Below, piece after piece: positions 1-42,484 of a stretch of 64,000 nt of DNA. The translations under genes and the position numbers were made by a program. The first letter of the stretch is position 1. The number at the start of each line of letters is the position of its first letter. The DNA comes from an uncultured bacterium (lineage in GTDB: Bacteria > Oederibacteriota > Oederibacteriia > Oederibacteriales > Oederibacteriaceae). The notes beneath the pieces are model-generated. The model saw only the letters and a list, made by a program, of their open reading frames with translations, was not told the DNA's origin and made no database searches. The stretch covers positions 2,510,966-2,574,965 of the forward strand of contig OZ218778.1 in the NCBI GenBank assembly GCA_965112635.1, given 5' to 3'.

Positions 1-1554
1 AAATCCACCCTGTGCCAGCTTTTGAACGGCATCATCCCGCACTTCCGCAAAGGCCAGCTCCAGGGCAGCCTGGCCGTCCTCGGCCAAGCTGGCGGCAAAA
101 AACCCAACGAGCTCTTTAACCGCGTCGGCATGATCTTCCAAGATTTTGAAACCCAGCTCTTTTCCACGACCGTGGAGCTGGAAATAGCGTTCGGCCTGGA
201 AAACCTGGGCCTGTCCGTGAGCGAAATTGACCGGCGCATCAAGGTCTATCTGGATCTGGTCGGCCTGTCCGGAATGGAAAAACGCGAACCCGCGACCCTT
301 TCCGGCGGCGAAAAGCAGCGCCTGGCCCTGGCCGCGGTCCTGGCCATGGAGCCTGAACTCCTCATCCTGGACGAACCCACCACGGACCTGGACCCCCTGG
401 GCAAAAAGGACATTTTGAACCTGGCCAAAAAGCTCCAAAGCGAACAAAAATCCGCCATCCTCATGGTGGAGCATGACTTCCAGGAAATGCAATCTGCCGG
501 CCAGTGGATCGTCCTGTCCCAGGGTGAGATCAAAAAGTCGGGCAAACCCGGCGAACTCCTGAAAGACATGGCTCTTTTTTCGGATAACGCCCTGCAGGCG
601 CCCCAGCTCCCCCACCTCTTTTCCAAGCTGGGCCTGTCTCCTTTGCCGGAAAATATAGAACAGGCCAAAACCGGCCTGGCCAAAGCCGGCTATACTTTTT
701 CCAAACAAAAGTTCGCCTCTATGGTCAGCCAAAAGAACAGGCGGCCAGCCGCTGACCCGGTCATCCAGGCGGATAAAGCTTCCTTCAGCTACGACAAGCA
801 AGGCACCGGCATCCAGGACATTTCCTTTTCCGTGCGAAAAGGCGAATTTGTGGCCATCCTCGGCCAGAACGGTTCGGGCAAGACAACCCTGGCCAAACAT
901 TTGAACGGCCTTATCCTTCCCCAATCCGGCTCCATCAAGGTCAATGGCAAAAAAACAAGTGAGACTCCCCTGACCCAGCTCGGCCGTGTCGTGGGCTATG
1001 TGTTCCAGAACCCGGACCACCAGATATTTTCCGATACGGTGGCGGAGGAACTGGCTTTTGGCCCCAACAACCGGGGCATCACCGGCGACCTGCAAAAACA
1101 ATACATCACCGAAGCGCTGAAGGCCGTGCATCTGGAAGGTTTTGAGCCCAAAGACCCTTTTACCCTGACCAAGGGAGAGCGTAAACGCGTGGCCATCGCC
1201 TCGGTCCTGGCCACCCGGCCCGAAGTGCTCATCTTTGACGAGCCGACCACCGGCCTGGATTTCAGCCAGCAAAAGACCATGATGCAGATGATCCAAAGCC
1301 TCAACCAGGCCGGACAGACCATCTTTATCATCACGCACTCCATGTGGGTGGCGGCCCAATACAGCGACAGGGTCATTTTGCTCAAGGACGGCCGACTGCT
1401 GGCCGACGGCCCGGCCCGGGACATCTTCAGCCAGGAGGACTTGCTGGCCAGGACCCATCTCCAAGCGCCGGACATCCTGAGCCTGAGCAACCTGTTCGGC
1501 TGTCCCTGCCTGACCCTGGAGGAAGCCTTGGAAAGCCTGGAGAAAAAACAATGA
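1..1554 (+). CDS. ECF-type ABC transporter ATPase with duplicated EcfA1-EcfA2-like nucleotide-binding domains. It is 5'-partial: the reading frame is open to position 1 and the first Walker A lies upstream of the window.
   Basis: Two ABC signature and Walker B segments are present (LSGGEKQRLALA..LILDEPT and TKGERKRVAIA..LIFDEPTTGLD). A second Walker A, GQNGSGKTT, is present. There is no stop in frame 1 between positions 1 and 22. The layout matches CbiO/EcfA-like ATPases. Confidence 0.85.
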   Translation, partial: KSTLCQLLNGIIPHFRKGQLQGSLAVLGQAGGKKPNELFNRVGMIFQDFETQLFSTTVELEIAFGLENLGLSVSEIDRRIKVYLDLVGLSGMEKREPATLSGGEKQRLALAAVLAMEPELLILDEPTTDLDPLGKKDILNLAKKLQSEQKSAILMVEHDFQEMQSAGQWIVLSQGEIKKSGKPGELLKDMALFSDNALQAPQLPHLFSKLGLSPLPENIEQAKTGLAKAGYTFSKQKFASMVSQKNRRPAADPVIQADKASFSYDKQGTGIQDISFSVRKGEFVAILGQNGSGKTTLAKHLNGLILPQSGSIKVNGKKTSETPLTQLGRVVGYVFQNPDHQIFSDTVAEELAFGPNNRGITGDLQKQYITEALKAVHLEGFEPKDPFTLTKGERKRVAIASVLATRPEVLIFDEPTTGLDFSQQKTMMQMIQSLNQAGQTIFIITHSMWVAAQYSDRVILLKDGRLLADGPARDIFSQEDLLARTHLQAPDILSLSNLFGCPCLTLEEALESLEKKQ

Positions 1555-2279
1555 GACTGTTCTTATACGCCAATGAAAGGACCTTTTTGCATCGCCTGGA
1601 CCCGCGGACCAAGTTCCTGGCTATGGTCATCGCCTTTATCATGATCCTGCTCTGGCGGGATATACCCTTTTTGGCCGTTTTGCTGGCCTTGGCCGTGACC
1701 GCCCTGTTGTGGGGCCGCTGCCAGGCCCAGCTCAAGCTCATGCTCCTGCCCTTGGCCGTGCTGTTCATCACCACGATCTTTATGTGGAGCGCTTTTAACC
1801 GCTTTACCTGGGCCGGCACCCTCTACGGCCTGGCCATGTCTTTAAGGCTCGGCTTTATCCTGCTCATCGGCATCCTGCTCCTGGCCACCACCCGCCTGGA
1901 GGACATTACCAGCGCCCTGCTTTTCATGGGCGTTCCTTATACCCTGAGCTTCAGCTTCTCTTTAGCGTTGCGCCTGCTCCCCACCTTCATCAACACCACC
2001 ACGACCATCATCGAAGCTCAAAAATCGCGCGGTCTGGATTTGAACTCGAAAAATCCCTGGGAAAGGGTTAAAAGGTATGTGCCTTTGCTGGTGCCCATCC
2101 TGTCCTGCGCCTTCAGGCAGGTGGATTTGCTGGCCATGGCCCTGGAATCCCGCGGCTTCGGCGTGCCCGTGGCCAAAAAAAGCATCTATACTAAACTGGG
2201 TTTTAAGTCCGCTGACTATCTGGTGACAGGTATAATAATAGTAGGGTTTATTGGGTTGGTTATATTGAGATGGAAGTAA
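1551..2279 (+). CDS. ecfT: ECF transporter transmembrane component EcfT (CbiQ family)
   Basis: The ATG at 1551 overlaps the upstream stop as ATGA, which suggests translational coupling. The 243-aa product is multi-pass hydrophobic and lies immediately downstream of the duplicated EcfA, as in typical EcfA-EcfA-EcfT operons. Confidence 0.75.
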   Translation: MRLFLYANERTFLHRLDPRTKFLAMVIAFIMILLWRDIPFLAVLLALAVTALLWGRCQAQLKLMLLPLAVLFITTIFMWSAFNRFTWAGTLYGLAMSLRLGFILLIGILLLATTRLEDITSALLFMGVPYTLSFSFSLALRLLPTFINTTTTIIEAQKSRGLDLNSKNPWERVKRYVPLLVPILSCAFRQVDLLAMALESRGFGVPVAKKSIYTKLGFKSADYLVTGIIIVGFIGLVILRWK

Positions 2280-2332: not shown

Positions 2333-4594
2333 CTAATCATGTAACACTAAAAACGCCGCCTTGGGGTCCCCGCAGTTGTCCACGACCTCCTGGAAGGGCA
2401 TCCGCTTGAACGGTTTCCCCGTGTTGCGGTCCACCACCAGCTTGACGATGGCGCAGTTCTTATACCCTTTGAGGGGCACCATGATGATGCTTCCGTTGAA
2501 CTGGAACTTTACCGGCCTGAGCGTATTGTCCCCCGGATACTGCACCAACACCTGTCCGATGTCGTGGCCCCTCTTGACCTGGAAGAAAGCGTATTTGTCC
2601 TTGGCAAAAGAGATATGGTCATAAGCGCTCAGCTCCTCGGTGATAATGCCGGCCACATAGCCGTCCGGCACCGTAAAAAGCTTGCCCTGCAGGTCGTTGG
2701 ACAACCTCATGGGGTCCTGCTCAAAGCAAAACACTCTCCTTTTGAAATGGCCGAATAAAGGCACATATTTCTTATAAAGCTTTAAATTCGCGTTTTTGGC
2801 TTTGGACGGCACTCCGTACATCTGCGGGGCGACCGGGAAAGAGCCGTGCAGGACGGACCGTTTCAGGTTCTCTTCGGTTGTCCTGGCGTCGCTTCCCCAC
2901 AAAAAGAAAAGGGGCATGGCCAGGGCCGCGTAAAAGAACTTTTCCTCCATATTATCCCCGTCCCCTTCCAGCATCACGCCGTCCACGTATTTCATACAGC
3001 GGATGGTCTGGGTCTTGTTGGCAAAGCAGCAGCGGTCCTGCCCTTCCAAAAGCTCCTTGTGCATCCGTTCCGTGATAGCGTCAAAACCGAAGTTGATACT
3101 GTAGGCCGGTTTGTTATGGGCCACGGTGATGCCGTCATCATGGGCAAAATCAAGGCCCACGTGCCTGAAGCAATCTAAAAAGAACCCCTCCAGCTTGGGA
3201 TAGGCCTGCATCATTTCACTGGCCGTTTTCAGCATATACTTGCCGAATGGCCCATTGAGGTCAGGGTTCATCAACCGGCACATCATCCAGCCGGTATTTT
3301 GCAATTTCCCGTTTTCCAGCGTGCAAATGGAGCTTTTGAAATACTTTTCCACCCAGGGTTCAAAACCGTCGGAAAAATTGATGTAAAACATGGGATGGAA
3401 ACCCGCGGCCTGGAACCGTCCGATGGCCTTCTTGATGTTTTCCTGGTCCATCCTATAAATACGGGGATCGATGAACCCTTTGGGAAGAAGGCCTTTTTTA
3501 ACCAGCTCCTTCTGGGAATAGCGCTCAAAAAGCCTCCAAACCTCTTTATAGGACAGCTTCTTCCCGGACCTTAGCCAGATCTGTTCCAAAGCTAAAATGC
3601 CGGGCCAGGATTTTTCCTTGGGCATGTAGTAGCCGTACCAGGGGAAATGGCAATGGAACTCGAAAAATTTGTCTCCTAGTATTTTATAAGCCTCGGCGTG
3701 CAGGGAAGTCTCTATCCAGCCTCCCACGAACACTCCGGCCTTGTCATGGATGCAGTCATTGGCCGGGTAAAAATACTCCCGGTATTTTTCCACAGTTTGG
3801 CCCAAGCCCGGACGCCAATCTCCCTCATGAAAGAACACCTTGACCTCAGTCTCTAGTTTACGGTCTTTAACCAGCCCAACGTAATAGTTCACTACCTCCA
3901 GAACCGGATAGTCTCTTGGGTCGCTCTCATGCCCGCCCCAGTTGAAATCCTTGTCCCCGTTCTGGAACTGGAATTTGGCCGCCGGCACTTTCTGGTCATA
4001 TGGCACGATAACCGAATACCCCACATCTTTGGTCCGGTCATAATGCGAAACAATGGGAACCACTATCTCGTGAGAAGTCCCTGAGAAAGGGATTTGGCCG
4101 TAGCTGTAATCAAAGGTCGTCATCCCGTCAAAAAGCAGGTCTGATTTGTTCGCCGGCGCCCACACCATCCACCCCGCTATCATCGGAAGCATGAAATACA
4201 CTCGAATGGAACGGTCTGCGACCTTTTTGCCTTTCTTTTCCATATCCACATGCCAGGTAAAACAATCCTGCTCCATGCTCAGGGTCACTTTGACCGTAAA
4301 CTTCGCGCCAGCAAACTGCTTGAGGTAGGTGATGGTATTGCCATTGGCTTGGAAATCCTTAACTGTGAATTTCTGGTCAAAGTCAGAGAACCATTTCCTT
4401 TCCAGCTCGTCGAATATCCGCAAGCCCCCGATATATCCCCGGATTTCCTGCTGTAACTGTTTGAACAGGTCGATTTGCTTGTCTTTCCAGACCATCGACC
4501 GAATCCATCCGGTCTTTTTCTCCACGCCAATGGATGACCTGGAATTCTCTATCCGGACTAATGACACTGAATAAAATAATTTCTGCTTCTTCAT
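2333..4594 (-). CDS. Hypothetical cytoplasmic protein (753 aa), paralogue A of a three-copy tandem family. It may be a carbohydrate-active enzyme but the family is not recognised.
   Basis: Long ORF with no signal peptide. The N-terminal 285 aa or so and the C-terminal 150 aa or so are nearly identical to the ORFs at 4641-6944 and 8498-10771. I recognise no catalytic motif. Confidence 0.7.
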   Translation of the reverse strand: MKKQKLFYSVSLVRIENSRSSIGVEKKTGWIRSMVWKDKQIDLFKQLQQEIRGYIGGLRIFDELERKWFSDFDQKFTVKDFQANGNTITYLKQFAGAKFTVKVTLSMEQDCFTWHVDMEKKGKKVADRSIRVYFMLPMIAGWMVWAPANKSDLLFDGMTTFDYSYGQIPFSGTSHEIVVPIVSHYDRTKDVGYSVIVPYDQKVPAAKFQFQNGDKDFNWGGHESDPRDYPVLEVVNYYVGLVKDRKLETEVKVFFHEGDWRPGLGQTVEKYREYFYPANDCIHDKAGVFVGGWIETSLHAEAYKILGDKFFEFHCHFPWYGYYMPKEKSWPGILALEQIWLRSGKKLSYKEVWRLFERYSQKELVKKGLLPKGFIDPRIYRMDQENIKKAIGRFQAAGFHPMFYINFSDGFEPWVEKYFKSSICTLENGKLQNTGWMMCRLMNPDLNGPFGKYMLKTASEMMQAYPKLEGFFLDCFRHVGLDFAHDDGITVAHNKPAYSINFGFDAITERMHKELLEGQDRCCFANKTQTIRCMKYVDGVMLEGDGDNMEEKFFYAALAMPLFFLWGSDARTTEENLKRSVLHGSFPVAPQMYGVPSKAKNANLKLYKKYVPLFGHFKRRVFCFEQDPMRLSNDLQGKLFTVPDGYVAGIITEELSAYDHISFAKDKYAFFQVKRGHDIGQVLVQYPGDNTLRPVKFQFNGSIIMVPLKGYKNCAIVKLVVDRNTGKPFKRMPFQEVVDNCGDPKAAFLVLHD

Positions 4595-4640
4595 ATCAGA
4601 ATCTCCTTCCTAATAAATTGTAATATTGACTTAATTGGTC

Positions 4641-6944
4641 CTAGTCATGTTTCACTAAAAACGCGGCTTTGGGGTCGCCGCAGTTGTCCACGACCTCCTG
4701 GAACGGCATCCTCTTGAACGGTTTTCCCGTGTTGCGGTCGACCACCAGCTTGACCACCGCGCAGTTCTGATAGCCCTGGAGAGGCACCATGATGATGCTT
4801 CCGTTGAACTGGAACTTGACCGGCCTTGGTTTTTTATCCCCCGGGTACTGCACCAGAACCTGTCCGATGTCGTGGCCTTGCTTGACCTGGACAAACACAT
4901 GCTTGGTCTTGGCATAGGAGACCCTGTCTCCCACCCCGACTTCCCTGCTCATAATGCCGGCCACATAGCCGTCAGGGATGGTATAGAGCTTGCCTTCCAT
5001 TCCACTGGACATCCTCATGGGGTCAGGCTCAAAGCAGAACACCCTGCGCCGGAAATGCTCATAGAGAGGCAGGAATTTTTGGTATAGCTTCAAATACCTT
5101 TTATACTGCTTGCCCCCGGTCTTATTTACCCTGCCTTCGTTCAGGGAAGGCGTGGTCGGGAAACAGCCGTGATAAACAGACCGCTTTAAACCTTCCTCGG
5201 CCGTGCTTTCCACACTGCCCCATGCCTCGCTGCCCCACAAAAAGAACAAAGGCATGGCCACGGACGGGTAAAAGAATTTTTCCTCCATCACCTCGCCGTT
5301 GCCTTCCAGGATGACCGCGTCCAAATGCTTCATGGCCCGGATGGTATGGGGCACATTGGCGAAATTGCACAGGTTCCGGCCTTCCAGAAGTTCCTTTTGG
5401 ATGCGCTCCGTGATGCTGTCAAACCCGAAATTGACGCTGTAAGCGGGCTGGTTATGGGCCACGGTCACCCCGTCATCGTGAGCAAAATCAATTTCCACAT
5501 GGTGGAAACAATCGTAAAAAAACCCGCCCAGCTCAGGATAGGCTCGGAGCATTTCCCTGAGGGTCTCCAGCAGCATGGCGCCAAAGGGGAACCGCACATC
5601 CGGGTTCATCAAACGGCACATATACCAGCCGCTGTTAATGGGCTTGCCGTTCTCCAGCCGGCAGATGGAACTCCGGAAGTTCTTTTCGGCCCAGGGTTCC
5701 AAGCCGTCCGAGTAATTGGTATAGAACAAGGAATGGATGCCAGCCTTGGACAGTTTCTGGATGGACTTCCTGATGTTGTTACGGCTAAGCTCAAAAAATA
5801 TTTTGTAATCCTCGGTTATCTTCGCAGGCATATCCATCAGCTTTTTCCTGCGGATATCCTGAAAAGACTCTTTCACGGACAGTTTCCAAACCTGTTCCAT
5901 GGTCAGCTTGTCTTTGTTTTTATGGTAGATGCCCTCCAATACCCTGATCCCCCGCCAGGTCTTTTCACTGGGCATGTAATGTCCGTACCAGGGAAAATGG
6001 CCGTGATATTCAAAAAATTTCAGGCCCAAAGCCCGGTATTTGGGGATATGAAAGGAGGTGTAGATGCCTCCGCAAGAATAGACCCCGGCCATGTCATGGA
6101 CGCAGTCATTGGCCGGGTAAAAATACTCCCGGTATTTTTCCACAGTTTGGCCCAAGCCCGGACGCCAATCTCCCTCATGAAAGAACACCTTGACCTCTGT
6201 CTTCAGCTTCCGGTCCTTCACCAGGCCGATGTAATAGTTCACGACCTCCAGCACAGGATAGTCCGCCGGGTCGCTTTCGTGCCCGCCCCAGTTGAAATCC
6301 TTGCCCCCGTTCTGGAACTGGAATTTTGCCGCCGGCACTTTCTGGTCATACGGCACGATGACCGAATACCCCACATCTTTGGTCCGGTCATAATGCGAAA
6401 CAATGGGAACCACTATCTCATGCGATGTCCCGGAAAACGGGATTTGCCCGTAGCTGTAATCAAAGGTCGTCATCCCGTCAAAAAGCAGGTCTGACTTGTT
6501 CGCCGGAGCCCATACCATCCACCCCGCGATCAAAGGCAGCATGAAATACACCCGGATGGACCGGTCTGCCACGTTTTTCCCTTTTTTCTCCATGTCTACG
6601 TGCCAGGTAAAACAATCCTGTTCCATGCTCAGGGTTACTTTGACCGTAAACTTCGCGCCAGCAAACTGTTTGAGGTAGGTGATGGTATTGCCATTGGCTT
6701 GGAAATCTTTGACTGTGAATTTCTGGTCAAAATCAGAGAACCATATCCTATCCAGCTCATCAAATATCCTGAGTCCACCGATATATCCCCGAATCTCCTG
6801 CTGTAACTGTTTAAACAGGTCGATTTGCTTGTCTTTCCAGACCATCGACCGAATCCATCCGGTCTTTTTCTCCACGCCAATGGATGACCTGGAATTCTCT
6901 ATCCGGACTAATGAGGTGGGATAAAATATCGAGCGCTTGGACAT
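4641..6944 (-). CDS. Hypothetical cytoplasmic protein (767 aa), paralogue B of the tandem family
   Basis: The same family as 2333-4594. An 850-nt tract at the 5' end of the gene (about 6100-6944) is nearly identical at nucleotide level to about 3750-4594 in paralogue A. Confidence 0.7.
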   Translation of the reverse strand: MSKRSIFYPTSLVRIENSRSSIGVEKKTGWIRSMVWKDKQIDLFKQLQQEIRGYIGGLRIFDELDRIWFSDFDQKFTVKDFQANGNTITYLKQFAGAKFTVKVTLSMEQDCFTWHVDMEKKGKNVADRSIRVYFMLPLIAGWMVWAPANKSDLLFDGMTTFDYSYGQIPFSGTSHEIVVPIVSHYDRTKDVGYSVIVPYDQKVPAAKFQFQNGGKDFNWGGHESDPADYPVLEVVNYYIGLVKDRKLKTEVKVFFHEGDWRPGLGQTVEKYREYFYPANDCVHDMAGVYSCGGIYTSFHIPKYRALGLKFFEYHGHFPWYGHYMPSEKTWRGIRVLEGIYHKNKDKLTMEQVWKLSVKESFQDIRRKKLMDMPAKITEDYKIFFELSRNNIRKSIQKLSKAGIHSLFYTNYSDGLEPWAEKNFRSSICRLENGKPINSGWYMCRLMNPDVRFPFGAMLLETLREMLRAYPELGGFFYDCFHHVEIDFAHDDGVTVAHNQPAYSVNFGFDSITERIQKELLEGRNLCNFANVPHTIRAMKHLDAVILEGNGEVMEEKFFYPSVAMPLFFLWGSEAWGSVESTAEEGLKRSVYHGCFPTTPSLNEGRVNKTGGKQYKRYLKLYQKFLPLYEHFRRRVFCFEPDPMRMSSGMEGKLYTIPDGYVAGIMSREVGVGDRVSYAKTKHVFVQVKQGHDIGQVLVQYPGDKKPRPVKFQFNGSIIMVPLQGYQNCAVVKLVVDRNTGKPFKRMPFQEVVDNCGDPKAAFLVKHD

Positions 6945-6966
6945 ACTGTTCTCCTTCCTAGAATCT

Positions 6967-7233
6967 TTACTCGTAATGGGTCCACATGCGGATGACTTTG
7001 ATGGTACGGGTGTCTTGTAAAACCTGATAAACCAAACGATGCTGGATATTGATGCGCCGTGAATACGCGCCTGCCAGGTCGCCTACAAGTTTTTCAAAAG
7101 GAGGATTAGCTTGATAAGGGTCATGGGATAGGATGTCTAGTAGTGCTTCAACTTTTTCATGAAGGCCTTCCGAGGATATCTTCTTGGCATCCTTGAGTGC
7201 CTGCCTGGAATAAACAACTTTCCAGGCTACCAC
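6967..7233 (-). CDS. yoeB: YoeB/Txe-family toxin (mRNA interferase) of a type II toxin-antitoxin module
   Basis: An 88-aa product with the YoeB-like C-terminal segment YSRRINIQHRLVYQV...IKVIRMWTHYE. It overlaps the upstream antitoxin gene by 7 nt. Confidence 0.85.
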   Translation of the reverse strand: MVAWKVVYSRQALKDAKKISSEGLHEKVEALLDILSHDPYQANPPFEKLVGDLAGAYSRRINIQHRLVYQVLQDTRTIKVIRMWTHYE

Positions 7234-7469
7234 TTGATTTCCTTGCTGTACTTTGAGACAGGAGTTTTCAGCCCCTTGCGAATGGACTCCCTCATCCCCG
7301 GTATAGAAAGGAGGTAAAGGGTCTCCTGGATGGACCTCCAGTCCTCGTCGGAAATAAGGACTGCATTGCCTTTTTTACCCGTGATCTGGATGGGGTCGTG
7401 TTCCCTGCCGGTCCTTTCCATTAGTTTGAAGAAATTGGCTCTTGCCTTGCTCGCCGTTAAAGTTGTCAT
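7227..7469 (-). CDS. yefM: YefM/Phd-family antitoxin
   Basis: An 80-aa product with a Phd/YefM-like N-terminus (ASKARANFFKLMERT...PIQITGKKGNAVLISDEDWRSIQETLYL). It lies immediately upstream of the toxin gene and overlaps it. Confidence 0.85.
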   Translation of the reverse strand: MTTLTASKARANFFKLMERTGREHDPIQITGKKGNAVLISDEDWRSIQETLYLLSIPGMRESIRKGLKTPVSKYSKEIKW

Positions 7470-7528
7470 TTTTTACCTCCTGAGGTAAGCGTACCATATA
7501 GTGTACCACTCGTCAAATAGGCAGGAGC

Positions 7529-8437
7529 TTAATACATCCCCTTCAGATTTTTCCATCTGCGATGGAGCCAGAGCCATTGGCAGGGGTCTGTGCGGATCTT
7601 TTGCTCCAAGTTTTTGGTTAAATCAAGTAGTGCGGTATGGACCTTTTCTTTCAGGTCCACCCCTTCCTTGAATACATATTCCGGCTCAATGGATACCGTG
7701 TGGATGTTATCAGGCCCGCGGGTGATAAAGGAGGGCAAAAGCGGGGCGCGGCTCCGTAAAGCCAGGATGATGGGCCCGTCCGTGAACAAGGTGGGCTGTC
7801 CCAAAAACTGTATCTCGATGCCGGTAGCGTAATACTGGTCGCCGGCCAGGACCACCACCTTTTTATCTTTTAAAAGCTTGATGGTATCTTTGATAATGGT
7901 TTCCCGGTTATCCCACAAATATTTACTGCCCCCGTGCATCATGACCTTGACATAGAACTGCTTGAACTGCTCATCATGGGGCGCCCGCAAAAGATACCAG
8001 ACATCATAACCCTGCTCATCGATGCGGTGCGGGAGCATGCTGAAACCGCCCCAGTGCGCCGTAAACAGGACCGCTCCCCTGCCCTTGGCCAGGGCCTGTT
8101 TAAGATTCTCTTCGCCAGTCACCAGAAAATGGCTTTCCAATTCCTTGCGGGTCAAATACGGCGTCCGCAGGGTATCGAACACGGAGCGCATCATATAGGA
8201 ATAGTTCTGGAGCGCGATAGCCTTGATCTCCTGCTGGCTTTTTTCCTTGCCGAAAACAAGGTTGAGGTTCTTGAGGGTGATGTTGCGGTGTTTGGGCCAG
8301 ACAGCATAAAAGGTCCGGGCCAGCATATCGGACAGGCGGTACATAGCGTTCCAGGATAAACGCGGGGTGACAAAATAAAGGCATTCCAAAAATATCCTGA
8401 GGAACAGCCCGACCAGGGATTTAAACAAGTTTTTCAT
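7529..8437 (-). CDS. Lipid A biosynthesis (Kdo2-lipid IVA) lauroyl/myristoyl acyltransferase, LpxL/HtrB family
   Basis: A 302-aa product with an N-terminal membrane anchor. The C-terminal motif PCQWLWLHRRWK is characteristic of the LpxL/HtrB/MsbB late acyltransferases. Confidence 0.7.
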   Translation of the reverse strand: MKNLFKSLVGLFLRIFLECLYFVTPRLSWNAMYRLSDMLARTFYAVWPKHRNITLKNLNLVFGKEKSQQEIKAIALQNYSYMMRSVFDTLRTPYLTRKELESHFLVTGEENLKQALAKGRGAVLFTAHWGGFSMLPHRIDEQGYDVWYLLRAPHDEQFKQFYVKVMMHGGSKYLWDNRETIIKDTIKLLKDKKVVVLAGDQYYATGIEIQFLGQPTLFTDGPIILALRSRAPLLPSFITRGPDNIHTVSIEPEYVFKEGVDLKEKVHTALLDLTKNLEQKIRTDPCQWLWLHRRWKNLKGMY

Positions 8438-8497
8438 ATCCAGATTTTAGCACAACCCTGCCCGTAATATTTCAAGTCGCGCGGGGAACGGACTTGA

Positions 8498-10771
8498 TCA
8501 GTCGTGAATGACCAAAAAGGCCGCCTTGGGGTCTCCGCAATTGTCCACGACCTCCTGGAAAGGCATCCTCTTGAACGGTTTCCCCGTGTTACGCGTCACC
8601 ACCAGCTTGACCACGCAGCAGTTCTTATACCCTTTCAATGGCACCATGATGATGCTGCCGTTGAACTGGAACTTCACCGGCCTGGGCTTCTTGTCCCCCG
8701 GATACTGCACCAGCACCTGGCCGATGTCATGGCCCCGCTTGACCTGGAAGTAAACGTATTTGTCCTTGGCGAACGATATCTTGTCGTTCACGCTCAACTC
8801 ATCGGTCATGATGCCGGCTACGTACCCGTCCGGCACCGTGAAAAGCTTGCCAATGAGGCCGTTGGACATCCGGATGGGGTCCTGTTCGAAACAGAAAACC
8901 CGGCGCTTGAAATGCTCATAAAGGGGGATGTACTTCCCGTAGGTCTTCATCGCTTCCTTGAACTGCTTGTCCCTTAATTTCGGCGACATATCGCTCAGGG
9001 CGGGAGTGGTCGGGAAAGAACCGTACATGAGGCACCGCTTCAGGTTTTCCTCGACGGTCCTGGCGTCGCTTCCCCAGAGGGTGAACAAAGGCATGGCCAA
9101 GGCTGAATAAAAGAACTTTTCTTCGATGACATCGCCATCCCCTTCCAAAAGGATGCCGTCCACATATTTCTGGCAGCGGATGTTCTGGGACTTGTTGGCA
9201 AAGCAGCAGCGGTTCCGGCCTTCCAGAAGTTCCTTGTGGATGCGCTCCGTGATGCCGTCAAAACCGAAATTGACGCTGTAAACCGGCTTGTTATTGGCCA
9301 CGGTCACGCCGTCGTCATGGGCGAAATCAATGCCCACGTGCCGGAAGCAGTCGTAAAAAAATCCGCCCAGCCGCGGATATACTCCCATCATCTCCCTGGC
9401 GGTTTCCAGGATATGCTTCCCAAAAGGCACGCTCAGGTCCGGGTTCATCAGCCGCTGCAAAGGCCATCCGGTATTTTGTTTTTTGCCGTTCTCCAAAGTG
9501 CAGATGGAACTGCTGAAATGCTCCTCGACCCACGGCTCGAACCCGTCCGAAAAATTGATATAGAACATGGGGTTTATCCCGTATTCCAGGAATCTATCGA
9601 TGGATTTGCGGATGCTTTCCCTGCTGAGGTCGTATAGTTCCGGGATGACATAATTTTTTGGCAGCAAACCTCTTTTGGCCAGTTCTTTCTGGGAACATTT
9701 TACGGAAAGCTGCATGGCTTGCTTGTAAGTGATCTTGCCCCTGCCTCTCCGGGCCACCTCTTCCACGATAGCGCACATACGCCATGTTTTTTCCTTGGGC
9801 ATGTAGTAGCCGTACCAGGGGAAATGACCGTGGTATTCAAAAAAGGTCATTCCCAGCGCCCGTTGCTGTTTCGCGTTAAAAGAAGTGGAAAGGGTCCCGC
9901 AATGGTACAGGCCGGCCTTGTCATGGATGCAGTCATTGGCCGGATAAAAGTATTCTCTGTATTTCTCCACGGTCTGCCCCAATCCCGGCCGCCAATCGCC
10001 CTCGTGGAAGAACACCTTGACCTCGGTCTGCAACTGGCGGTCCTTGATAAGGCCGATGTAATAGTTCACCACTTCCAGGACCGGATAATTGGCCGGGTCG
10101 ACCTCATGGCCGCCCCAGTTGAAATCCCTGTCCCCGTTCTGGAACTCGAACTTGGCCGCGGGAACCTTTTTGTCGTACGGCACGATGACCGAATATCCGA
10201 CATCCTTGGTCCGTTCATAATGGGAAATGATGGGCACTACAACCTCATGGGATGTACCCGAGAACGGGATCTGGCTGTAGCTGTAATCAAAGGTCGTCAT
10301 GCCGTCGAACAAAAGGTCGGATTTATAAGCCGGCGCCCACACCATCCATCCCGCGATCATGGGGATCATAAAATGGACCCGGATGGAACGGTCCGCGACC
10401 TTTTTACCCCTTTTTTCCATATCCACATGCCAGGTAAAACAGTCCTCGTCCATGCTCAGGGTCACTTTGACCGAGAACTTCGCCCCTGCAAACTGCTTGA
10501 GATAGGTGATGGTATTGCCTTCGCACTGGAAATCCTTGACTGTGAATTTCTGGTCAAAATCAGAGAACCACTTCTTATCGACCTCGTCATAGATGCGCAA
10601 GCCCCCGATATATCCCCGGATCTCCTGCTGTAATTGTTTGAACAGGTCGATTTGCTTGTCCTTCCAGACCATGGAACGTATCCATCCGGTCTTTTTTTCC
10701 ACACCGACGGACGACCTGGAATTCTCTATCCGGACTAAGGGAGTAGGATAAAATATAGAACGCTTGGACAT
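8498..10771 (-). CDS. Hypothetical cytoplasmic protein (757 aa), paralogue C of the tandem family
   Basis: The same architecture as paralogues A and B. It is more diverged from them, at roughly 85-90% nucleotide identity in the N-terminal tract. Confidence 0.7.
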   Translation of the reverse strand: MSKRSIFYPTPLVRIENSRSSVGVEKKTGWIRSMVWKDKQIDLFKQLQQEIRGYIGGLRIYDEVDKKWFSDFDQKFTVKDFQCEGNTITYLKQFAGAKFSVKVTLSMDEDCFTWHVDMEKRGKKVADRSIRVHFMIPMIAGWMVWAPAYKSDLLFDGMTTFDYSYSQIPFSGTSHEVVVPIISHYERTKDVGYSVIVPYDKKVPAAKFEFQNGDRDFNWGGHEVDPANYPVLEVVNYYIGLIKDRQLQTEVKVFFHEGDWRPGLGQTVEKYREYFYPANDCIHDKAGLYHCGTLSTSFNAKQQRALGMTFFEYHGHFPWYGYYMPKEKTWRMCAIVEEVARRGRGKITYKQAMQLSVKCSQKELAKRGLLPKNYVIPELYDLSRESIRKSIDRFLEYGINPMFYINFSDGFEPWVEEHFSSSICTLENGKKQNTGWPLQRLMNPDLSVPFGKHILETAREMMGVYPRLGGFFYDCFRHVGIDFAHDDGVTVANNKPVYSVNFGFDGITERIHKELLEGRNRCCFANKSQNIRCQKYVDGILLEGDGDVIEEKFFYSALAMPLFTLWGSDARTVEENLKRCLMYGSFPTTPALSDMSPKLRDKQFKEAMKTYGKYIPLYEHFKRRVFCFEQDPIRMSNGLIGKLFTVPDGYVAGIMTDELSVNDKISFAKDKYVYFQVKRGHDIGQVLVQYPGDKKPRPVKFQFNGSIIMVPLKGYKNCCVVKLVVTRNTGKPFKRMPFQEVVDNCGDPKAAFLVIHD

Positions 10772-10784
10772 ACTGTTCTCCTTC

Positions 10785-11297
10785 CTAGGATTTTTTGGAC
10801 AATGCTTCGTATTCCCTTAAAACGCCCTGGTCATAGCAGGCCAAAACCACCTTTTTAAAACCGGGATGGTTCCGGACAAAATTATTGATCTCTTTCCAGG
10901 CTATCTTGCACGCCAGGTCAATGGGATAGCCGTAGACCCCGCAGCTTATAGCCGGGAACGCGATGGTTTTGGCCCCGTTCTTGAGCGCCAGTTTCATGCT
11001 CTCATGGTAGCAGGAAGCCAGCAAGGCGGGCTCTCCCTGTCTGCCGTCCTGGTAGATAGGGCCCACGGTGTGCACGACCCATTTGGCTTTGAGGCGGTAT
11101 CCTTTGGTGAGCTTGGCATGGCCGGGCTCGCATCCGCCCAGGTTGGAGCATTCCGCCGCCAGTTCCGGACCGGCAGCCCGGTGGATGGCGCCGTCCACGC
11201 CTCCCCCTCCCATCAGGGAAGGATTGGCCGCGTTGACGATGGCGTCAACCTCCAGTTGGGTGATATCTCCCTGTACAACCTCTATCTTGGCGGGCAT
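10785..11297 (-). CDS. Macro-domain protein (O-acetyl-ADP-ribose deacetylase, YmdB-like)
   Basis: A 170-aa product with the macro-domain motifs VVQGDITQLEVDAIVNAAN and GGGVDGAIHRAAG. Confidence 0.85.
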   Translation of the reverse strand: MPAKIEVVQGDITQLEVDAIVNAANPSLMGGGGVDGAIHRAAGPELAAECSNLGGCEPGHAKLTKGYRLKAKWVVHTVGPIYQDGRQGEPALLASCYHESMKLALKNGAKTIAFPAISCGVYGYPIDLACKIAWKEINNFVRNHPGFKKVVLACYDQGVLREYEALSKKS

Positions 11298-11340
11298 TTC
11301 CGATTGTCTCCAGCAACTTTCTTTTGGCCCCTAGGAACGG

Positions 11341-12354
11341 TCAATCTTCCAGCATCTCTTCGTAAAACTCCCTGAACTTGTAGCGGGCCGGGTCATTTTT
11401 TTTCAGCGACATGATCTTCATGGCCTCTTCGGGATGCATGTTGGTAATGCCGCTGATCATGTAGGGGATATGGTATCCCCAGTCGATCTCTTCCTGCAGC
11501 GGCAGGATCTGGCCGGCGATGACGTCCAGGATGGGCCTCAGGTCGAACTTGGGGTTCTTGAGGAACCCGACCAAAAGTTCCAGGCAGCAGTTGCCCGCCC
11601 CCCGGCCCAGCCCGTAAAGTGTGCCGTCCAGGAAATTGGCCCCCCGGATGATCCCCTCGATGGTATTGGCGAAAGCCAGCTGCTGGTTGTTATGGGCATG
11701 CATGCCGATCTCGATGCCCGGCAGCAGTTTCTGGAATTTGGAGACGAAATAGTCGATATCCTCCGAATACATGGCCCCGAAGCTGTCCACGATATAGCAG
11801 GCGAGGATCTTGGTCTCGGCCTTGATCTGCTGGAGGGCCTCGTTGAGCTCCCTTTCAGGGGCCGTGGAAATGGACATGATATTGATGGTGGTCTCGTAGC
11901 CTTTGGCGTTCGCGTCATTGGAGATCTTGATGGCCTTGTCCACGTCCTTGACGTAGGTCGCTACCCGGACGACATCCACCAGGCTTTTTTGGCGGGGCAA
12001 AAGGTCCTCGCTGCTGCTTTTATGCGCGTCCATCATCACCGCGATCTTGGTCCCGGGATATTTCTTGTCACCCACGACCTGTTTGATCATCTCTTCGTCG
12101 CAGAAGCGCCAGGCCCCGTATTTCGCCGGGTCGAACATCTTTTTGCTGTTCCGGTAACCCAGCTCCACGATCTGGATGCCTGCCTCGCAAACGGCCTTGT
12201 AAACCGCCTTGACGCAATCCATGGAAAAATGGGAGTTGTTCATCAATCCCCCGTCCCTGATGGTGCAATCCACGACGGTGATCTGCGGCCTGTACATAAA
12301 TGGCTCCTCTCCTGAATGAGTCCAAACATTATAGTAATACTCTGTCGTTTTCAC
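11341..12354 (-). CDS. HMGL-like aldolase / pyruvate carboxyltransferase-domain protein (DRE-TIM metallolyase superfamily)
   Basis: The N-terminal VVDCTIRDGG motif and an overall length of about 340 aa resemble 4-hydroxy-2-oxovalerate aldolase and HMGL-like enzymes. Confidence 0.55.
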   Translation of the reverse strand: MKTTEYYYNVWTHSGEEPFMYRPQITVVDCTIRDGGLMNNSHFSMDCVKAVYKAVCEAGIQIVELGYRNSKKMFDPAKYGAWRFCDEEMIKQVVGDKKYPGTKIAVMMDAHKSSSEDLLPRQKSLVDVVRVATYVKDVDKAIKISNDANAKGYETTINIMSISTAPERELNEALQQIKAETKILACYIVDSFGAMYSEDIDYFVSKFQKLLPGIEIGMHAHNNQQLAFANTIEGIIRGANFLDGTLYGLGRGAGNCCLELLVGFLKNPKFDLRPILDVIAGQILPLQEEIDWGYHIPYMISGITNMHPEEAMKIMSLKKNDPARYKFREFYEEMLED

Positions 12355-15792: not shown

Positions 15793-18700
15793 TCAGGCTT
15801 TCTGGACCAGCTCAACCCCTCCGAGCAGGCCGTAGTTAAAGAGCGAGAACTCGTCCTTGATGTTCCGCTCATCCTCAAAACCGTCCGGCCCGCACCACTG
15901 GTTGTCGTCCCCGGTCTTTTCATGCAGGGGTCCCCAGCTGTTCTGCAGGGAAGAGACCACTTCGATCTCCAGAAGATTCTCTCCGTCTTTGAGATACGGG
16001 GTAAGCTCCAGTTCATAGGGCTGCCACAGGATTTTCCCTGCCTCTTCACCATTGACCCTGACCTTAAAGAGGATGCCCGAGGGCTGGTTCAGCCGCAGCC
16101 AGGTTTTGGCCTTTTTCCGGACATGGAACGGTGTTGAGTAGACCATCCTGCCGCTGTAAAAAGGATAGGTCTGCCTGACCCACGACCCGAACTCCAGTCT
16201 TTTGGTTTCTTCCACGATCTTTCCTTCGTAGGGGCCCGCAAGCTCCACGCCAAAATCCCCGACCACATAGGCCGCCTCCACCTGGGTCAGGATATTGTAT
16301 TGGACCGAGAACTCCGCGACATTCCCCCCTTTTCTGACCAGGCGGCTGATGTCGACCTTGCCGAAACCGCGGTCCCAGTGCCAGGCCCCTGTCTTGGCCG
16401 GAACAGGGACGCCGTTCACTTTGAGGAATCCCTTGTTCAGGTCCTCAATGACTAAAAAAGCGCTCCTGGGGTTGGCCACGTCGCTGGTGAATTTATAGCG
16501 CAGGGTCAAGGGTCCCGTGCTGTCCTTAAAAAGACCCTTGCGGATGACGACCCACGGCTGCCACCACAGGGCATCCTCCGTGCCAAAATGTTTGGCGACC
16601 TTTTCACGGATGCGGAATTCCAGGTCGCGGGCCGTCCAGGTCTGGCCATGGTCAAAAGAGGCTTCCAGCCTGTCCATCACCAGCACGTTCGCGTCCAGCC
16701 GGCGATGCTCCCACAACTTGGGCAAAGCGACTTGTTTTGTTTGGGCAGGCAAGCCCAGCCCTTTGACCGGCCTGGCCTGGGGTATGTTCCCGGTCGATAC
16801 CAGTAGCGACCCGCAAGGAGGCAGGGTGAAAAGCACCTCGCTATCCTTGCCTTTCCGCTGGGATTCCATCTGTCTGGCCGTCCCGCTCAGGGGGTCCAGG
16901 GCCGTGACTTTCTTGGCCCCATTTTTTAAAACAAGGGAATAATGCATATCGTGGATCCTGTCCGAATTGACGATGAACAGGATCAGGTTGTTGCCGTCTT
17001 CCCTGGCGTGGACATAGGTCTGCGGAACGGATTTGCCGTCCAACCCGGCCAGCCTGAACTTCTGGGGCACGGTCTCATTCATAGCCGCCTGTAGGTTCTC
17101 GATACTGGAGGACATCGTCCGCACTCCGGGCTGGCTGGCCAAACCTCTCCATTTTTCCATTGCCGGCTCGCCCTCTATGTCCAGGGGCAGTTCTCCGCTG
17201 AAGATGAGCTGGCCGCCCTGGCTCACGAACTTTTGCAGCAGCCTGAAAGTGGAAGGCCGCCAGGTCACGGACGGCGGCACCACGACCACCTCATAGGCCA
17301 TTTTGCCGACCACAAATTTGCCTTTCTTGACGCTCCCCAGGTCCTGGATGTATCCCTCGTCGCCCAGATCGCAGTCAAATCCTGCGTTCAAAGTGGCCTC
17401 CACCAGCTTGCGGTACTGCTCGTCCAGTCTCTGGGCGTCGCTCAGGTCCTCCAGGGGCGGATTCACGGGAGTGGCCTTGGGCTGGAAATATTCGGTCCGG
17501 GTGGCGACCCCGAAACGGTGGTCGCTTGTGGCGCTCTCGATGGGATGCAGCAAAAGCACATGGGCTCCCGGCTTGCCGCAGGTCAGGGCGTAATGGACCC
17601 GCGTGAAATAATCATTGAGCGGGTTGAGCTCTTTCCAGTAGGTCTGCTGGTAGTTCCATACGGGCGGGTAGTCCCTCTTGGCCCTGCCTTTGGCCGTGTA
17701 CCAGGAAAGATGGGGGCAGAAAAAGGTCGCGCCCAGGACCAGGTCATAATCGCCCAGCCATTTAAAATCCTGGAAAGTGTTGGTGTGACGCGACACGCCG
17801 AATATCTCGGTCAGGACCCGTTTCCTGCCGAGCTGCCTGGCCGCCGAACTCACCTGCTTGACCGTCAGCAGCAGGCCGTCGACTTTGCGGCAGAGATGGT
17901 CTATGCCCGGAGCGTGCTGGAACCGGTAATGGGCCATGACGCCGCCGCAATGGCAGCGTATCTGCGAGGTGAAGGATTCCTCGGCGTTGTAGTGCCCGGT
18001 GTGCTCCAGCCCGTGCTTTTCGCACCACTCGAAGATGGGCTTGCTGTAGGCCTCGGTGAACTGCCTTAAAATGGCGCGGTGCATCAGGAGCCTGATATGT
18101 CTGGCTCCTTTGCCGTCAAAGAACATGTAGGGTAGGTCGTTCCAGAAGTTCCTGCGGTTCCATTTCCGGTAGACTTGGGGCAAACCCTCGTACCAGGGCA
18201 GGCTGTGGTCGGTCTGCCATATCTGGGGCTCGTCCGTGAAAATGCCCGGTATCCTTTTCCCGAACTCCTCCTGAAATTCCTTGGCGTAAACATCATGGGT
18301 CATCCGAATGAACTCCCTCATGGCCTCGGGGTTAAGGAGGTTGGCGTAGGATTCGCCGTTCCACCACGCTCCCTTGGAGTCATAGCGCCGGATGAGGACC
18401 AGCCGTTCTTCTTTCTGGATCTTTCCAGCCTGCTTGACCGCTACGGCCCGGTATTTAAAGAGGTCCTTGCCGCTGCGCTTTTCAATGGCATAGACCATCC
18501 TTAATTCCTGGTCCTTTTGGGAGCGAGGGAGAGGCACTCCCGGAGCCAGGAGGTATGCGTCCAGCAAAGCGGTGCGGTACTCGTCCTTGGTCCCGGCGAT
18601 GAGCCCCCCGGCATTGCCGCTGGGCCACCGGTCCTCGTCGTAAAGCCACAGGTAGCCGTCGTGTTCCTTGGCCGCCTTTAGAGCGGCCCGCATATTGTCG

Positions 18701-18888
18701 AACCATTCCTTGGAAAGATAGTCCGTAACCAGCCCGGCCCTGGAATGGAAAAACCCTCCGGAAAGGCCCACGGAGATCATGTCCGTCATTTGCCTGGCGG
18801 TCTCCCCTGTTTCCAGTTTGTCGTTGATGGACCAGAACGGCGCCGGCCTGAGGATCGTGTCGGGATTTTGGAACTTTTTGATATCCAT
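15793..18888 (-). CDS. Large cytoplasmic glycoside-hydrolase-like protein (1031 aa). It is possibly a GH106-like alpha-L-rhamnosidase, but the family assignment is tentative.
   Basis: There is no signal peptide. The N-terminus (PAPFWSINDKL...ARQMTDMISVGLSGGFFHSRAGLVTDYLS) resembles the N-terminal region of large rhamnosidase-type GHs formerly annotated as GH2 sugar-binding. The genomic context is rhamnose-related. Confidence 0.45.
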   Translation of the reverse strand: MDIKKFQNPDTILRPAPFWSINDKLETGETARQMTDMISVGLSGGFFHSRAGLVTDYLSKEWFDNMRAALKAAKEHDGYLWLYDEDRWPSGNAGGLIAGTKDEYRTALLDAYLLAPGVPLPRSQKDQELRMVYAIEKRSGKDLFKYRAVAVKQAGKIQKEERLVLIRRYDSKGAWWNGESYANLLNPEAMREFIRMTHDVYAKEFQEEFGKRIPGIFTDEPQIWQTDHSLPWYEGLPQVYRKWNRRNFWNDLPYMFFDGKGARHIRLLMHRAILRQFTEAYSKPIFEWCEKHGLEHTGHYNAEESFTSQIRCHCGGVMAHYRFQHAPGIDHLCRKVDGLLLTVKQVSSAARQLGRKRVLTEIFGVSRHTNTFQDFKWLGDYDLVLGATFFCPHLSWYTAKGRAKRDYPPVWNYQQTYWKELNPLNDYFTRVHYALTCGKPGAHVLLLHPIESATSDHRFGVATRTEYFQPKATPVNPPLEDLSDAQRLDEQYRKLVEATLNAGFDCDLGDEGYIQDLGSVKKGKFVVGKMAYEVVVVPPSVTWRPSTFRLLQKFVSQGGQLIFSGELPLDIEGEPAMEKWRGLASQPGVRTMSSSIENLQAAMNETVPQKFRLAGLDGKSVPQTYVHAREDGNNLILFIVNSDRIHDMHYSLVLKNGAKKVTALDPLSGTARQMESQRKGKDSEVLFTLPPCGSLLVSTGNIPQARPVKGLGLPAQTKQVALPKLWEHRRLDANVLVMDRLEASFDHGQTWTARDLEFRIREKVAKHFGTEDALWWQPWVVIRKGLFKDSTGPLTLRYKFTSDVANPRSAFLVIEDLNKGFLKVNGVPVPAKTGAWHWDRGFGKVDISRLVRKGGNVAEFSVQYNILTQVEAAYVVGDFGVELAGPYEGKIVEETKRLEFGSWVRQTYPFYSGRMVYSTPFHVRKKAKTWLRLNQPSGILFKVRVNGEEAGKILWQPYELELTPYLKDGENLLEIEVVSSLQNSWGPLHEKTGDDNQWCGPDGFEDERNIKDEFSLFNYGLLGGVELVQKA

Positions 18889-19034: not shown

Positions 19035-19928
19035 ATGTCGGACAAAATTTCCGTTCTTCTGGACACGGATATCGGCAGTGACATTGACGACGCCGTAGCC
19101 TTATCCTACCTGCTCCGCCAGCCCCGCTGCGAACTGCTGGGCATCACCACGGTTTCGGGCGATACCCGCCAGCGCGCGGCCTGCGCCGAGATCCTCTGCG
19201 CTGAGGCGGGCCGGCTGGATATCCCCATCCACTGCGGCGCTGAACAGGTCTTGCTCCTCGGCCCCGGCCAGCCCGAAGTCCCCCAGTACCACGCCATCAA
19301 ACACCGGCCCCATCACCTGGACCGGCCTCTCCATACTGCCGTGGATTTCCTGAGAAAGACTATCCGCCAGCGACCAGGCGAGATCACCCTTTTGACCATC
19401 GGCCCTTTGACCAACATCGCCTTGCTTTTCGCCATGGACCCCGAGATCCCCTCCCTTTTGAAAAACCATGTGGCCATGGCCGGCGAATTTTTCGTCCAGT
19501 CAGAACGCCATTTCCGGGAGTGGAATATCCTGGTGGACCCCGTGGCCAGCGCCATGGTTTACTCCACGCCCCACAAGGATTTCACCAGCATCGGCCTGGA
19601 TGTCACCCTCCAATGCGCCCTGCCCGCTCCCGAGGTCAGGAAAAAGTTCCAGACCAAGCCCCTCAACATAGTTTTGGAAATGGCCCAGGTCTGGTTCCAA
19701 AAAGTTGACCGGGTCATCTTCCACGACCCCCTGGCCGCTGCGGTCATCTTTGAGCCCGGGCTGTGCCAGTATGAAACAGGCCGGGTCAAGGTCACCGTGG
19801 ACGCGGACCAGGAAAAGTCCGGGGCTACTTTATTTACTTCCCCTGCCTCGGGCCCTGTTTCCCACCGGGTGGCCAAAAGCGTGGACACCGCTAAATTCTT
19901 CAAGGAATATTTTGGAGTTTTCCAATGA
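19035..19928 (+). CDS. Inosine-uridine-preferring nucleoside hydrolase family protein
   Basis: The N-terminal motif VLLDTDIGSDIDDAVAL is the DxDxxxDD signature of nucleoside hydrolases. The product is 297 aa. Confidence 0.8.
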   Translation: MSDKISVLLDTDIGSDIDDAVALSYLLRQPRCELLGITTVSGDTRQRAACAEILCAEAGRLDIPIHCGAEQVLLLGPGQPEVPQYHAIKHRPHHLDRPLHTAVDFLRKTIRQRPGEITLLTIGPLTNIALLFAMDPEIPSLLKNHVAMAGEFFVQSERHFREWNILVDPVASAMVYSTPHKDFTSIGLDVTLQCALPAPEVRKKFQTKPLNIVLEMAQVWFQKVDRVIFHDPLAAAVIFEPGLCQYETGRVKVTVDADQEKSGATLFTSPASGPVSHRVAKSVDTAKFFKEYFGVFQ

Positions 19929-41201: not shown

Positions 41202-41203
41202 GG

Positions 41204-42388: not shown

Positions 42389-42484
42389 AGCGGCTTACCT
42401 CCTATGATTATTAATGTTTAGTTGCTTAACAAAGGCATCATATCAATTCCCTTTTAAAATCACAAGACAACGCAACCGGGCAGG

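Follow-up and report, generated by a model that had tools for sequence, protein, structure and literature searches.

In clan GH-D of the glycoside hydrolases (GHs) and in family GH66, the catalytic nucleophile stands at the end of barrel strand 4 and the general acid/base at the end of strand 6. GH36 enzymes carry the signature motifs DDGW, KxD and CxxGxxR, and GH129 enzymes use an Asp/Glu catalytic pair, the Asp-Glu spacing being about 30-45 residues in both GH129 and GH101. Related to the GH-D/GH-H group are the GHL families, uncharacterised bacterial families with a triose-phosphate isomerase (TIM) barrel. Among the major degraders of complex and sulfated glycans are Planctomycetota, Lentisphaerota and Kiritimatiellia, and many of their enzymes still carry the annotation 'hypothetical'. 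Here we describe three paralogous genes, A, B and C, near the start of a 64,000-nt stretch of DNA from an uncultured bacterium of the Oederibacteriaceae (contig OZ218778.1, positions 2,510,966 to 2,574,965, assembly GCA_965112635.1; hereafter the window). The fold and the conserved residues of their products suggest that they are, rather likely, cytoplasmic retaining glycosidases with a three-domain TIM-barrel architecture, belonging to a family that is annotated in none of the databases searched (Pfam, NCBIfam and PDB). All three are intact open reading frames (ORFs) on the minus strand, with coordinates exactly as a first-pass annotation of the window had given them: A at 2333..4594 (753 amino acids), B at 4641..6944 (767 amino acids) and C at 8498..10771 (757 amino acids).

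Sequence searches of Pfam (2025), NCBIfam (2026) and PDB (2026) returned no match for A, B or C. A 62-sequence family profile found nothing significant in PDB, two family profiles found nothing significant in sequence libraries, and in PDB a broad family profile matched the ZgGH129 N-terminal domain (8rzk/5opq) at a sub-threshold E of 0.11. Of 62 close relatives, not one reaches the threshold of a glycosidase model in Pfam; a single sub-threshold GHL6 match (E 0.004) comes nearest. A word-indexed search recovered 166 homologues; among the 120 that were listed, none has a precomputed Pfam domain and every source name is 'hypothetical'. An exhaustive profile search retrieved 488 cluster representatives at E<=1e-3 among 1.84 billion, which makes this a small family, and a search of the literature found no relevant characterised homologue or newly founded family. 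The initial impression of an unrecognised family was thus upheld by the databases and by the names of the homologues alike.

Family members were located at 60 loci in GTDB species representatives, all of which are metagenome-assembled genomes. They come from Planctomycetota/Phycisphaerae, Victivallales/Lentisphaera, Kiritimatiellia and Candidatus Firestonebacteria, together with one bin labelled Anaerolineales. Many genomes hold two to three dispersed copies, and a second copy within 6 kb was found at none of the 60 related loci. The 2.88-Mb contig to which the window belongs encodes three more dispersed paralogues (P0007, P0025 and P0093) with 42-47% identity; a 760-amino-acid ORF without a Pfam match near P0093 was considered and found not to be a family member. 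A, B and C form a clade, with 74-76% amino acid identity among themselves and at most 53% to anything else. Distant relatives of 1000-1350 amino acids possess extra C-terminal PF06439 (3-keto-disaccharide hydrolase/DUF1080) and Laminin_G_3 lectin-type domains.

C was modelled with AlphaFold2 from a 62-sequence alignment (predicted local distance difference test, pLDDT, 92.3; predicted template modelling score, pTM, 0.91). The model consists of an N-terminal beta-sandwich (residues 1-256), a (beta/alpha)8 barrel (about 286-621) and a C-terminal beta-sandwich (about 630-730). The barrel comprises exactly eight beta/alpha units, with strands at residues 288-292, 308-313, 400-405, 470-474, 522-526, 539-543, 562-565 and 586-588. 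Since the model is already ordered from residue 11 (pLDDT 97), a signal peptide is absent, as had been surmised, and the assignment to the cytoplasm is supported. A Foldseek search of PDB placed GH129 first (5opq/8rzk, E 1.5e-21), followed at further ranks by GH36 (9ayu/9awt and 4fnr), the GH129 enzyme NagBb (5wzn), GH101 (5a59 and 3ecq), GH66 (8iua) and GH31 (5aeg). Taken with the weak profile alignment described below, the modelled fold assigns the family to the retaining alpha-glycosidase superfamily, which comprises GH66, clan GH-D (GH36, GH27 and GH31), GH129/GH101 and GH13. The first-pass annotation had guessed at a carbohydrate-active enzyme and quoted short motifs, including WGGHESDP, HFPWYG and FAHDDG, all of which are present; the guess is borne out by the fold and by the lectin-type domains fused to distant relatives.

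The predicted catalytic residues of C lie at the strand ends expected from clan GH-D and GH66. The predicted nucleophile, D474 (codon 9350..9352, minus strand; equivalents 3173-3175 in A and 5511-5513 in B), is at the C-terminal end of barrel strand 4, and the predicted general acid/base, E543 (codon 9143..9145, minus strand; equivalents 2966-2968 in A and 5304-5306 in B), is at the C-terminal end of strand 6. When distant relatives were aligned at 20% identity, only Y404, D474 and D487 were invariant, and in this distant alignment of the family E543, D482, D538, N526, R261 and W330 were conserved at 90% or more. Alignment of the family profile with the Escherichia coli GH31 enzymes YicI and YihQ by hhalign matched residues 380-490 of C with residues 321-432 of YicI, pairing Y404 with W345, N406 with N347, N443-P-D445 (MNPD) with the TNPD motif, and D474 with D416; its score was 31.8 (P 0.008), versus a maximum of 27.3 among 20 reversed or block-shuffled controls. 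The GH31 profile was shallow (effective number of sequences, Neff, 1.9; YicI homologues all >=82% identical), which limits the power of this comparison. In YihQ, D405 is the catalytic nucleophile and D472 the acid/base (bioRxiv 10.64898/2026.02.11.705467). YicI D416 aligns with YihQ D405, so that on a weak alignment D474, on the fourth barrel strand, falls on the nucleophile position of clan GH-D.

The arrangement of these residues suggests a double displacement, in which Asp474, at the end of strand 4 within the motif GFF(L/Y)DCFRH, would attack the anomeric carbon, and Glu543, at the end of strand 6 within the motif LLEG, would serve as general acid/base. The sugar would be held in a pocket lined by His314/His316, Tyr404/Asn406/Asp409, Asn443 and Asp486/Asp487. 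Both the fold and this likely mechanism are of a well-known kind, and the locus does not constitute a new type of system.

Among the families with a comparable fold, the GH66 dextranases and cycloisomaltooligosaccharide glucanotransferases (3wnk, 8iu8, 5axg and 3vmn) share with A, B and C the three domains, namely an N-terminal beta domain, a central (beta/alpha)8 barrel and a C-terminal beta-sandwich. The spacing of their Asp...Glu pair is similar to that of the predicted pair here (62 residues between Asp293 and Glu355 of FjGH66, PMC10316084; 69 residues between D474 and E543), and seven of 64 distant relatives match the GH66 model PF13199, partially and weakly. However, identity to GH66 is 9-11%, and PF13199 gave no match at E<=1 for A, B or C and none at E<=0.1 among the 62 close relatives. 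The N-terminal domain is a 256-residue mutarotase-like sandwich here and a roughly 85-residue Ig fold in GH66, and GH66 enzymes are secreted whereas A, B and C are cytoplasmic. The GH36 alpha-galactosidases and FpGalNase (9awt, 9ayu and 4fnr) resemble A, B and C in their large mutarotase-like N-terminal domain and in being often cytoplasmic, but identity is 8-11%, the acid/base candidate is Glu here and Asp in GH36, and the three GH36 signature motifs are absent; the Pfam models of GH36, GH27 and GH31 match neither A, B and C nor the 62 close relatives.

GH129, represented by the alpha-N-acetylgalactosaminidase NagBb (5wzn) and the 3,6-anhydro-D-galactosidase ZgGH129 (5opq/8rzk), provides the top Foldseek match at 12-13% identity. 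Template modelling (TM) scores to GH129/GH101 are nevertheless only 0.46-0.54, there is no significant sequence match and no Pfam match, and the Asp-Glu spacing of those families is shorter than the 69 residues found here. GH31 (E. coli YicI alpha-xylosidase and YihQ sulfoquinovosidase) is the only family for which a residue-level profile alignment was obtained; it differs in the lack of a PF01055 match, in the weakness of that alignment, in an acid/base that is out of register, and in the nucleophile signature, which is (K/W)xD(F/M)(G/N)E in GH31 and FF(L/Y)DCFRH here. Naumoff's GHL families (Pfam GHL6 and GHL15) share the TIM barrel, and GHL6 and GHL15 match four and one, respectively, of the 64 distant relatives, but these matches are marginal (best E 2e-4) and A, B and C have none. 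It is conceivable, though we hold it with more doubt than confidence, that the family to which A, B and C belong is the first of an undescribed CAZy-level GH family specific to the Planctomycetes-Verrucomicrobia-Chlamydiae (PVC) group and Firestonebacteria, with a substrate outside those of GH66, GH36, GH129 and GH31.

Several points weigh against reading these proteins as retaining glycosidases of an unannotated family. No Pfam glycosidase model matches them, and none of the family's members has a known activity. The GH31 alignment obtained with hhalign has weak statistics (P 0.008, probability 4.8%), and although the conserved acid on strand 6 is Glu543, the acid/base of YicI, D482, pairs with D545 of C, two residues past E543 and unconserved in the family. 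The neighbourhood is not conserved across the 60 loci, so context gives no substrate. Finally, the family is unannotated by Pfam, NCBIfam and PDB searches, and a CAZy number for it may already exist.

The same scaffold could also support another chemistry, A, B and C being transglycosylases, glycoside phosphorylases or enzymes of the alpha-glucan-lyase type and not hydrolases. There is precedent in the neighbouring families, as GH66 includes cyclising glucanotransferases and GH31 includes lyases. We judge this unlikely, given that most structural neighbours are plain hydrolases and that nothing specific points to transfer, phosphorolysis or elimination; hydrolysis by a retaining mechanism thus stays our preferred assignment.

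Comparison of the three copies revealed a mosaic of identity along the genes, as the first-pass annotation had reported. Overall amino acid identity is 74.4% for A-B, 76.5% for A-C and 73.7% for B-C. In codons 11-283, which encode the N-terminal domain and linker, the nucleotide identities are 91.8%, 84% and 83%, respectively, and the homogenised tract of A (3746..4564, minus strand) has its partner in that of B (6096..6914, minus strand). The tract contains two perfect A-B runs, of 96 nt (3752-3847) and 101 nt (4464-4564), and A-B identity drops to 61% directly 3' of codon 283. Its 5' edge is marked by a start region that B and C share and A lacks, consisting in B of the ribosome-binding site (CTAGGAAGGAGAACAGT) and first 10 codons (6915..6961, minus strand), with the counterpart in C at 10742..10788 (minus strand). 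In codons 284-690, A is nearer to C (66% amino acid identity) than to B (57%), B having the most divergent central region of the three, and over the last 77 codons each of the three pairs reaches 91-94% identity.

These measurements revise most of the dimensions first given for the mosaic. A and B had been put at 95-98% identity over the 5' 850 nt, and 3750-4594 versus 6100-6944 is in fact 90.4% identical; a 94-nt stretch described as identical agrees at 93 of 94 positions, the true perfect runs being the two listed above. The diverged centre extends over about 400 codons instead of about 250, and the similar 3' end over about 250 nt instead of about 450 nt. Nor is C uniformly the more diverged copy, as the A-C pair shows the highest overall identity and, in the centre, is closer than A-B.

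Distances at 4-fold degenerate third positions (p-distances, saturating at about 0.67) distinguish the pairs further. In codons 11-283 they are 0.28 (+/-0.04) for A-B, 0.46 for A-C and 0.48 for B-C; in codons 284-690, 0.52 (+/-0.05), 0.41 and 0.52; and in codons 691-767, 0.34, 0.33 and 0.50. Within the tract the synonymous distance is lowered for the A-B pair only, A-C and B-C being flat along the gene. Tract and flank are incongruent in neighbour-joining trees, which group A with B for the N-terminal region, ((A,B),C), and A with C for the centre, ((A,C),B). Concordant polymorphic sites are clustered beyond chance, a Sawyer-type permutation of the longest concordant run giving p<1e-4 for the A-B pair and p=0.01 for the A-C pair. 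The A-B conversion or recombination signature over codons 11-283 is real, and the N-terminal third of this pair is much younger than the rest of the gene. At the tract edges are runs of 30 and 32 identical synonymous codons (p=0.012), while the interior is patchy, which suggests more than one short conversion event. The conversion had been proposed as recent; the signature stands but the recency does not, because the tract has a K of about 0.35 at 4-fold sites.

Selection accounts for most of the mosaic at the amino acid level. Since the synonymous distances of A-C and B-C are flat along the gene, the contrast within these pairs (89% identity in the N-terminal domain versus 57-66% in the centre) reflects the rate of protein change, and the notion that the central region differs in age fails for them (N-terminal/centre synonymous distances 0.46/0.41 and 0.48/0.52). 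The ratio of nonsynonymous to synonymous rates (dN/dS) rises from about 0.05 in the N-terminal domain to 0.13-0.2 in codons 401-600, and is still higher in codons 331-400. These values would also fit a mosaic produced by selection alone, purifying on the N- and C-terminal domains and relaxed on the barrel, with no conversion at all. We consider that account improbable, because selection can neither lower the 4-fold-site distance in a single pair (0.28 for A-B versus 0.46 and 0.48 over the same codons), nor switch the tree topology or yield a permutation p<1e-4, nor create perfect runs of 96-101 nt followed by an abrupt fall to 61% identity.

Conversion combined with unequal selection would give the following history. 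An old triplication would have come first, as synonymous divergence has reached about 60-75% of saturation; one or more gene conversions would then have replaced codons 11-283 of A or B by those of the other copy, after which the barrel would have evolved faster at the protein level. The nearness of the synonymous sites to saturation (0.41-0.52 versus 0.67) weakens the dating of the centre and counts against this part of the account. Against the nearest outgroup, P0004, identity is 58-62% for the N-terminal domain and 49-52% for the centre, from which the ratio of barrel to N-terminal divergence would be about 2.6 times greater among the paralogues than between orthologues. The gene-conversion result is a worked example and no surprise.

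The segments least conserved among A, B and C are residues 286-300, 331-405 and 601-615, all numbered as in C. The second of these contains a hypervariable helical insertion between strand 2 and helix 2 (C residues 331-399, 9575..9781, minus strand; equivalents 3398-3604 in A and 5736-5954 in B), in which amino acid identity among the three copies is 29-37%. In the model of C the insertion lies on the catalytic face of the barrel, because it directly follows the invariant HxHFxxYxxY loop, and would therefore be expected to shape the substrate subsites. The copies are most unlike one another at 331-399 and around residue 601, and they probably differ in the glycosides on which they act. At the amino acid level, the non-catalytic end domains (N- and C-terminal) of the three are 89-97% identical and the barrels 57-66%; possibly the near-identical end domains have been kept so partly through gene conversion, and the isoforms may co-assemble via those domains. 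A, B and C thereby represent three natural variants in which the barrel differs and the non-catalytic domains are the same, which makes them handy for mapping specificity determinants. The family as a whole, being compact, well conserved and often multi-copy, with a confident fold and predicted catalytic residues, lends itself to inexpensive expression and screening of substrates, and is a candidate new GH family.

All 50 family-invariant residues are kept in A, B and C, so that none of the three looks like a pseudo-enzyme. This bears on a further alternative, in which A, B and C would be non-catalytic carbohydrate-binding or structural proteins with a retained glycosidase fold, for which the missing Pfam match and the lack of a known activity, mentioned above, would speak. 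We regard it as very improbable, as the invariant acidic, histidine and aromatic residues cluster at the C-terminal strand ends, where the active site of a TIM barrel is located, and have all been retained over six paralogues' worth of divergence. That the near-identical tracts are an assembly artefact, chimeric or collapsed repeats, is most improbable of all. The Logan assembly of run ERR11523656 holds the three dispersed paralogues but lacks A, B and C in full length; these occur only in the NCBI and ENA assemblies, suggesting a region that is hard to assemble. Against an artefact, the 631-kb contig from ENA and the 2.88-Mb contig from NCBI are the same at 20,771/20,771 positions across the locus, the most similar tract still shows differences at 8% of its sites and no perfect run above 101 nt, the three ORFs are intact with all invariant residues kept, and the contig sizes suggest a long-read assembly.

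The description of A, B and C as three tandem paralogues applies to A and B, which are separated by a spacer of 46 nt, and not to C, which lies 1.55 kb from B with three genes in the gap. These encode an LpxL/HtrB-type acyltransferase from outside the family (7529..8437, minus strand; Pfam PF03279, E 1e-38), a YefM/Phd antitoxin of 80 amino acids (7227-7469, minus strand) and a YoeB toxin of 88 amino acids (6967-7233, minus strand). The antitoxin and toxin ORFs overlap by 7 nt, and the pair (6967..7469) stops 22 nt upstream of B. Upstream of C are a macro-domain gene and an HMGL-like gene, on the minus strand like the intervening genes and the paralogues themselves. In a repeat search A, B and C were in register, with start-to-start distances of 2308-2350 nt (A-B) and 3827-3857 nt (B-C). 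The 2-kb block with YefM/YoeB and the LpxL-like gene has a GC content of 0.49, the lowest of the region. Scans for promoters and terminators performed no better than on shuffled sequence, and Rfam and tRNA scans of the window were empty.

An energy-coupling factor (ECF) transporter sits beside the copies, as first noted; it adjoins A in convergent orientation and includes an EcfA-EcfA fusion and EcfT/CbiQ (window 1-2279). Its two tandem QueT-type S-components are encoded beyond the window (L001:18493-22274), and their family points to uptake of queuosine precursors and not of sugars. A functional link between the transporter and the paralogues was rejected on the basis of the convergent transcription and the QueT-type S-components.

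Among 99 immediate neighbours of family members at about 55 loci, no family occurs more than three times (GFO_IDH_MocA being the commonest, with three occurrences). The contexts of individual family members are nonetheless dominated by sugar metabolism. P0025 is accompanied by AraC, ThuA, two GFO_IDH_MocA genes and a xylose-isomerase-like TIM barrel; P0016 is surrounded by GH42, GntR/PBP, GFO_IDH_MocA and LarA; and P0070 neighbours an RGL11-like protein and a sugar ATP-binding cassette (ABC) transporter. The window likewise is rich in carbohydrate-active and sugar-catabolism genes (19925-22030, 36790-38478, 38485-43816 and 58136-59722) and holds two sugar-catabolism clusters. Its gene content includes GH127-like, GH123, GH57 branching enzyme and rhamnosidase-like proteins, and one cluster combines two xylose-isomerase-like TIM barrels with an FGGY kinase and a major facilitator superfamily (MFS) transporter.

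Genes for the nickel-pincer cofactor (Lar) lie beside family members twice (L006:4824-5579 and 10615-11799; L007:10265-11563). A LarB-like AIRC gene and LarC are downstream of P0093, and LarA overlaps the stop codon of the orthologue P0016. This proximity could be coincidence or a link to sugar epimerisation.

Several other large proteins of the window deserve mention. The product of 15793-18888 (minus strand, 1031 amino acids) has no Pfam match; it gives only a far-sub-threshold NCBIfam match to BT4145-type alpha-L-rhamnosidase, together with a glycosylhydrolase-like jelly-roll domain, and may be another unannotated glycosidase-like protein. The plus-strand ORFs at 46766-49684 and 50835-53825 (972 and 996 amino acids) have no Pfam match at E<=1e-3, and beside them 53914-57198 encodes a 1094-amino-acid protein with a weak Por/type IX secretion system (T9SS) C-terminal sorting domain.

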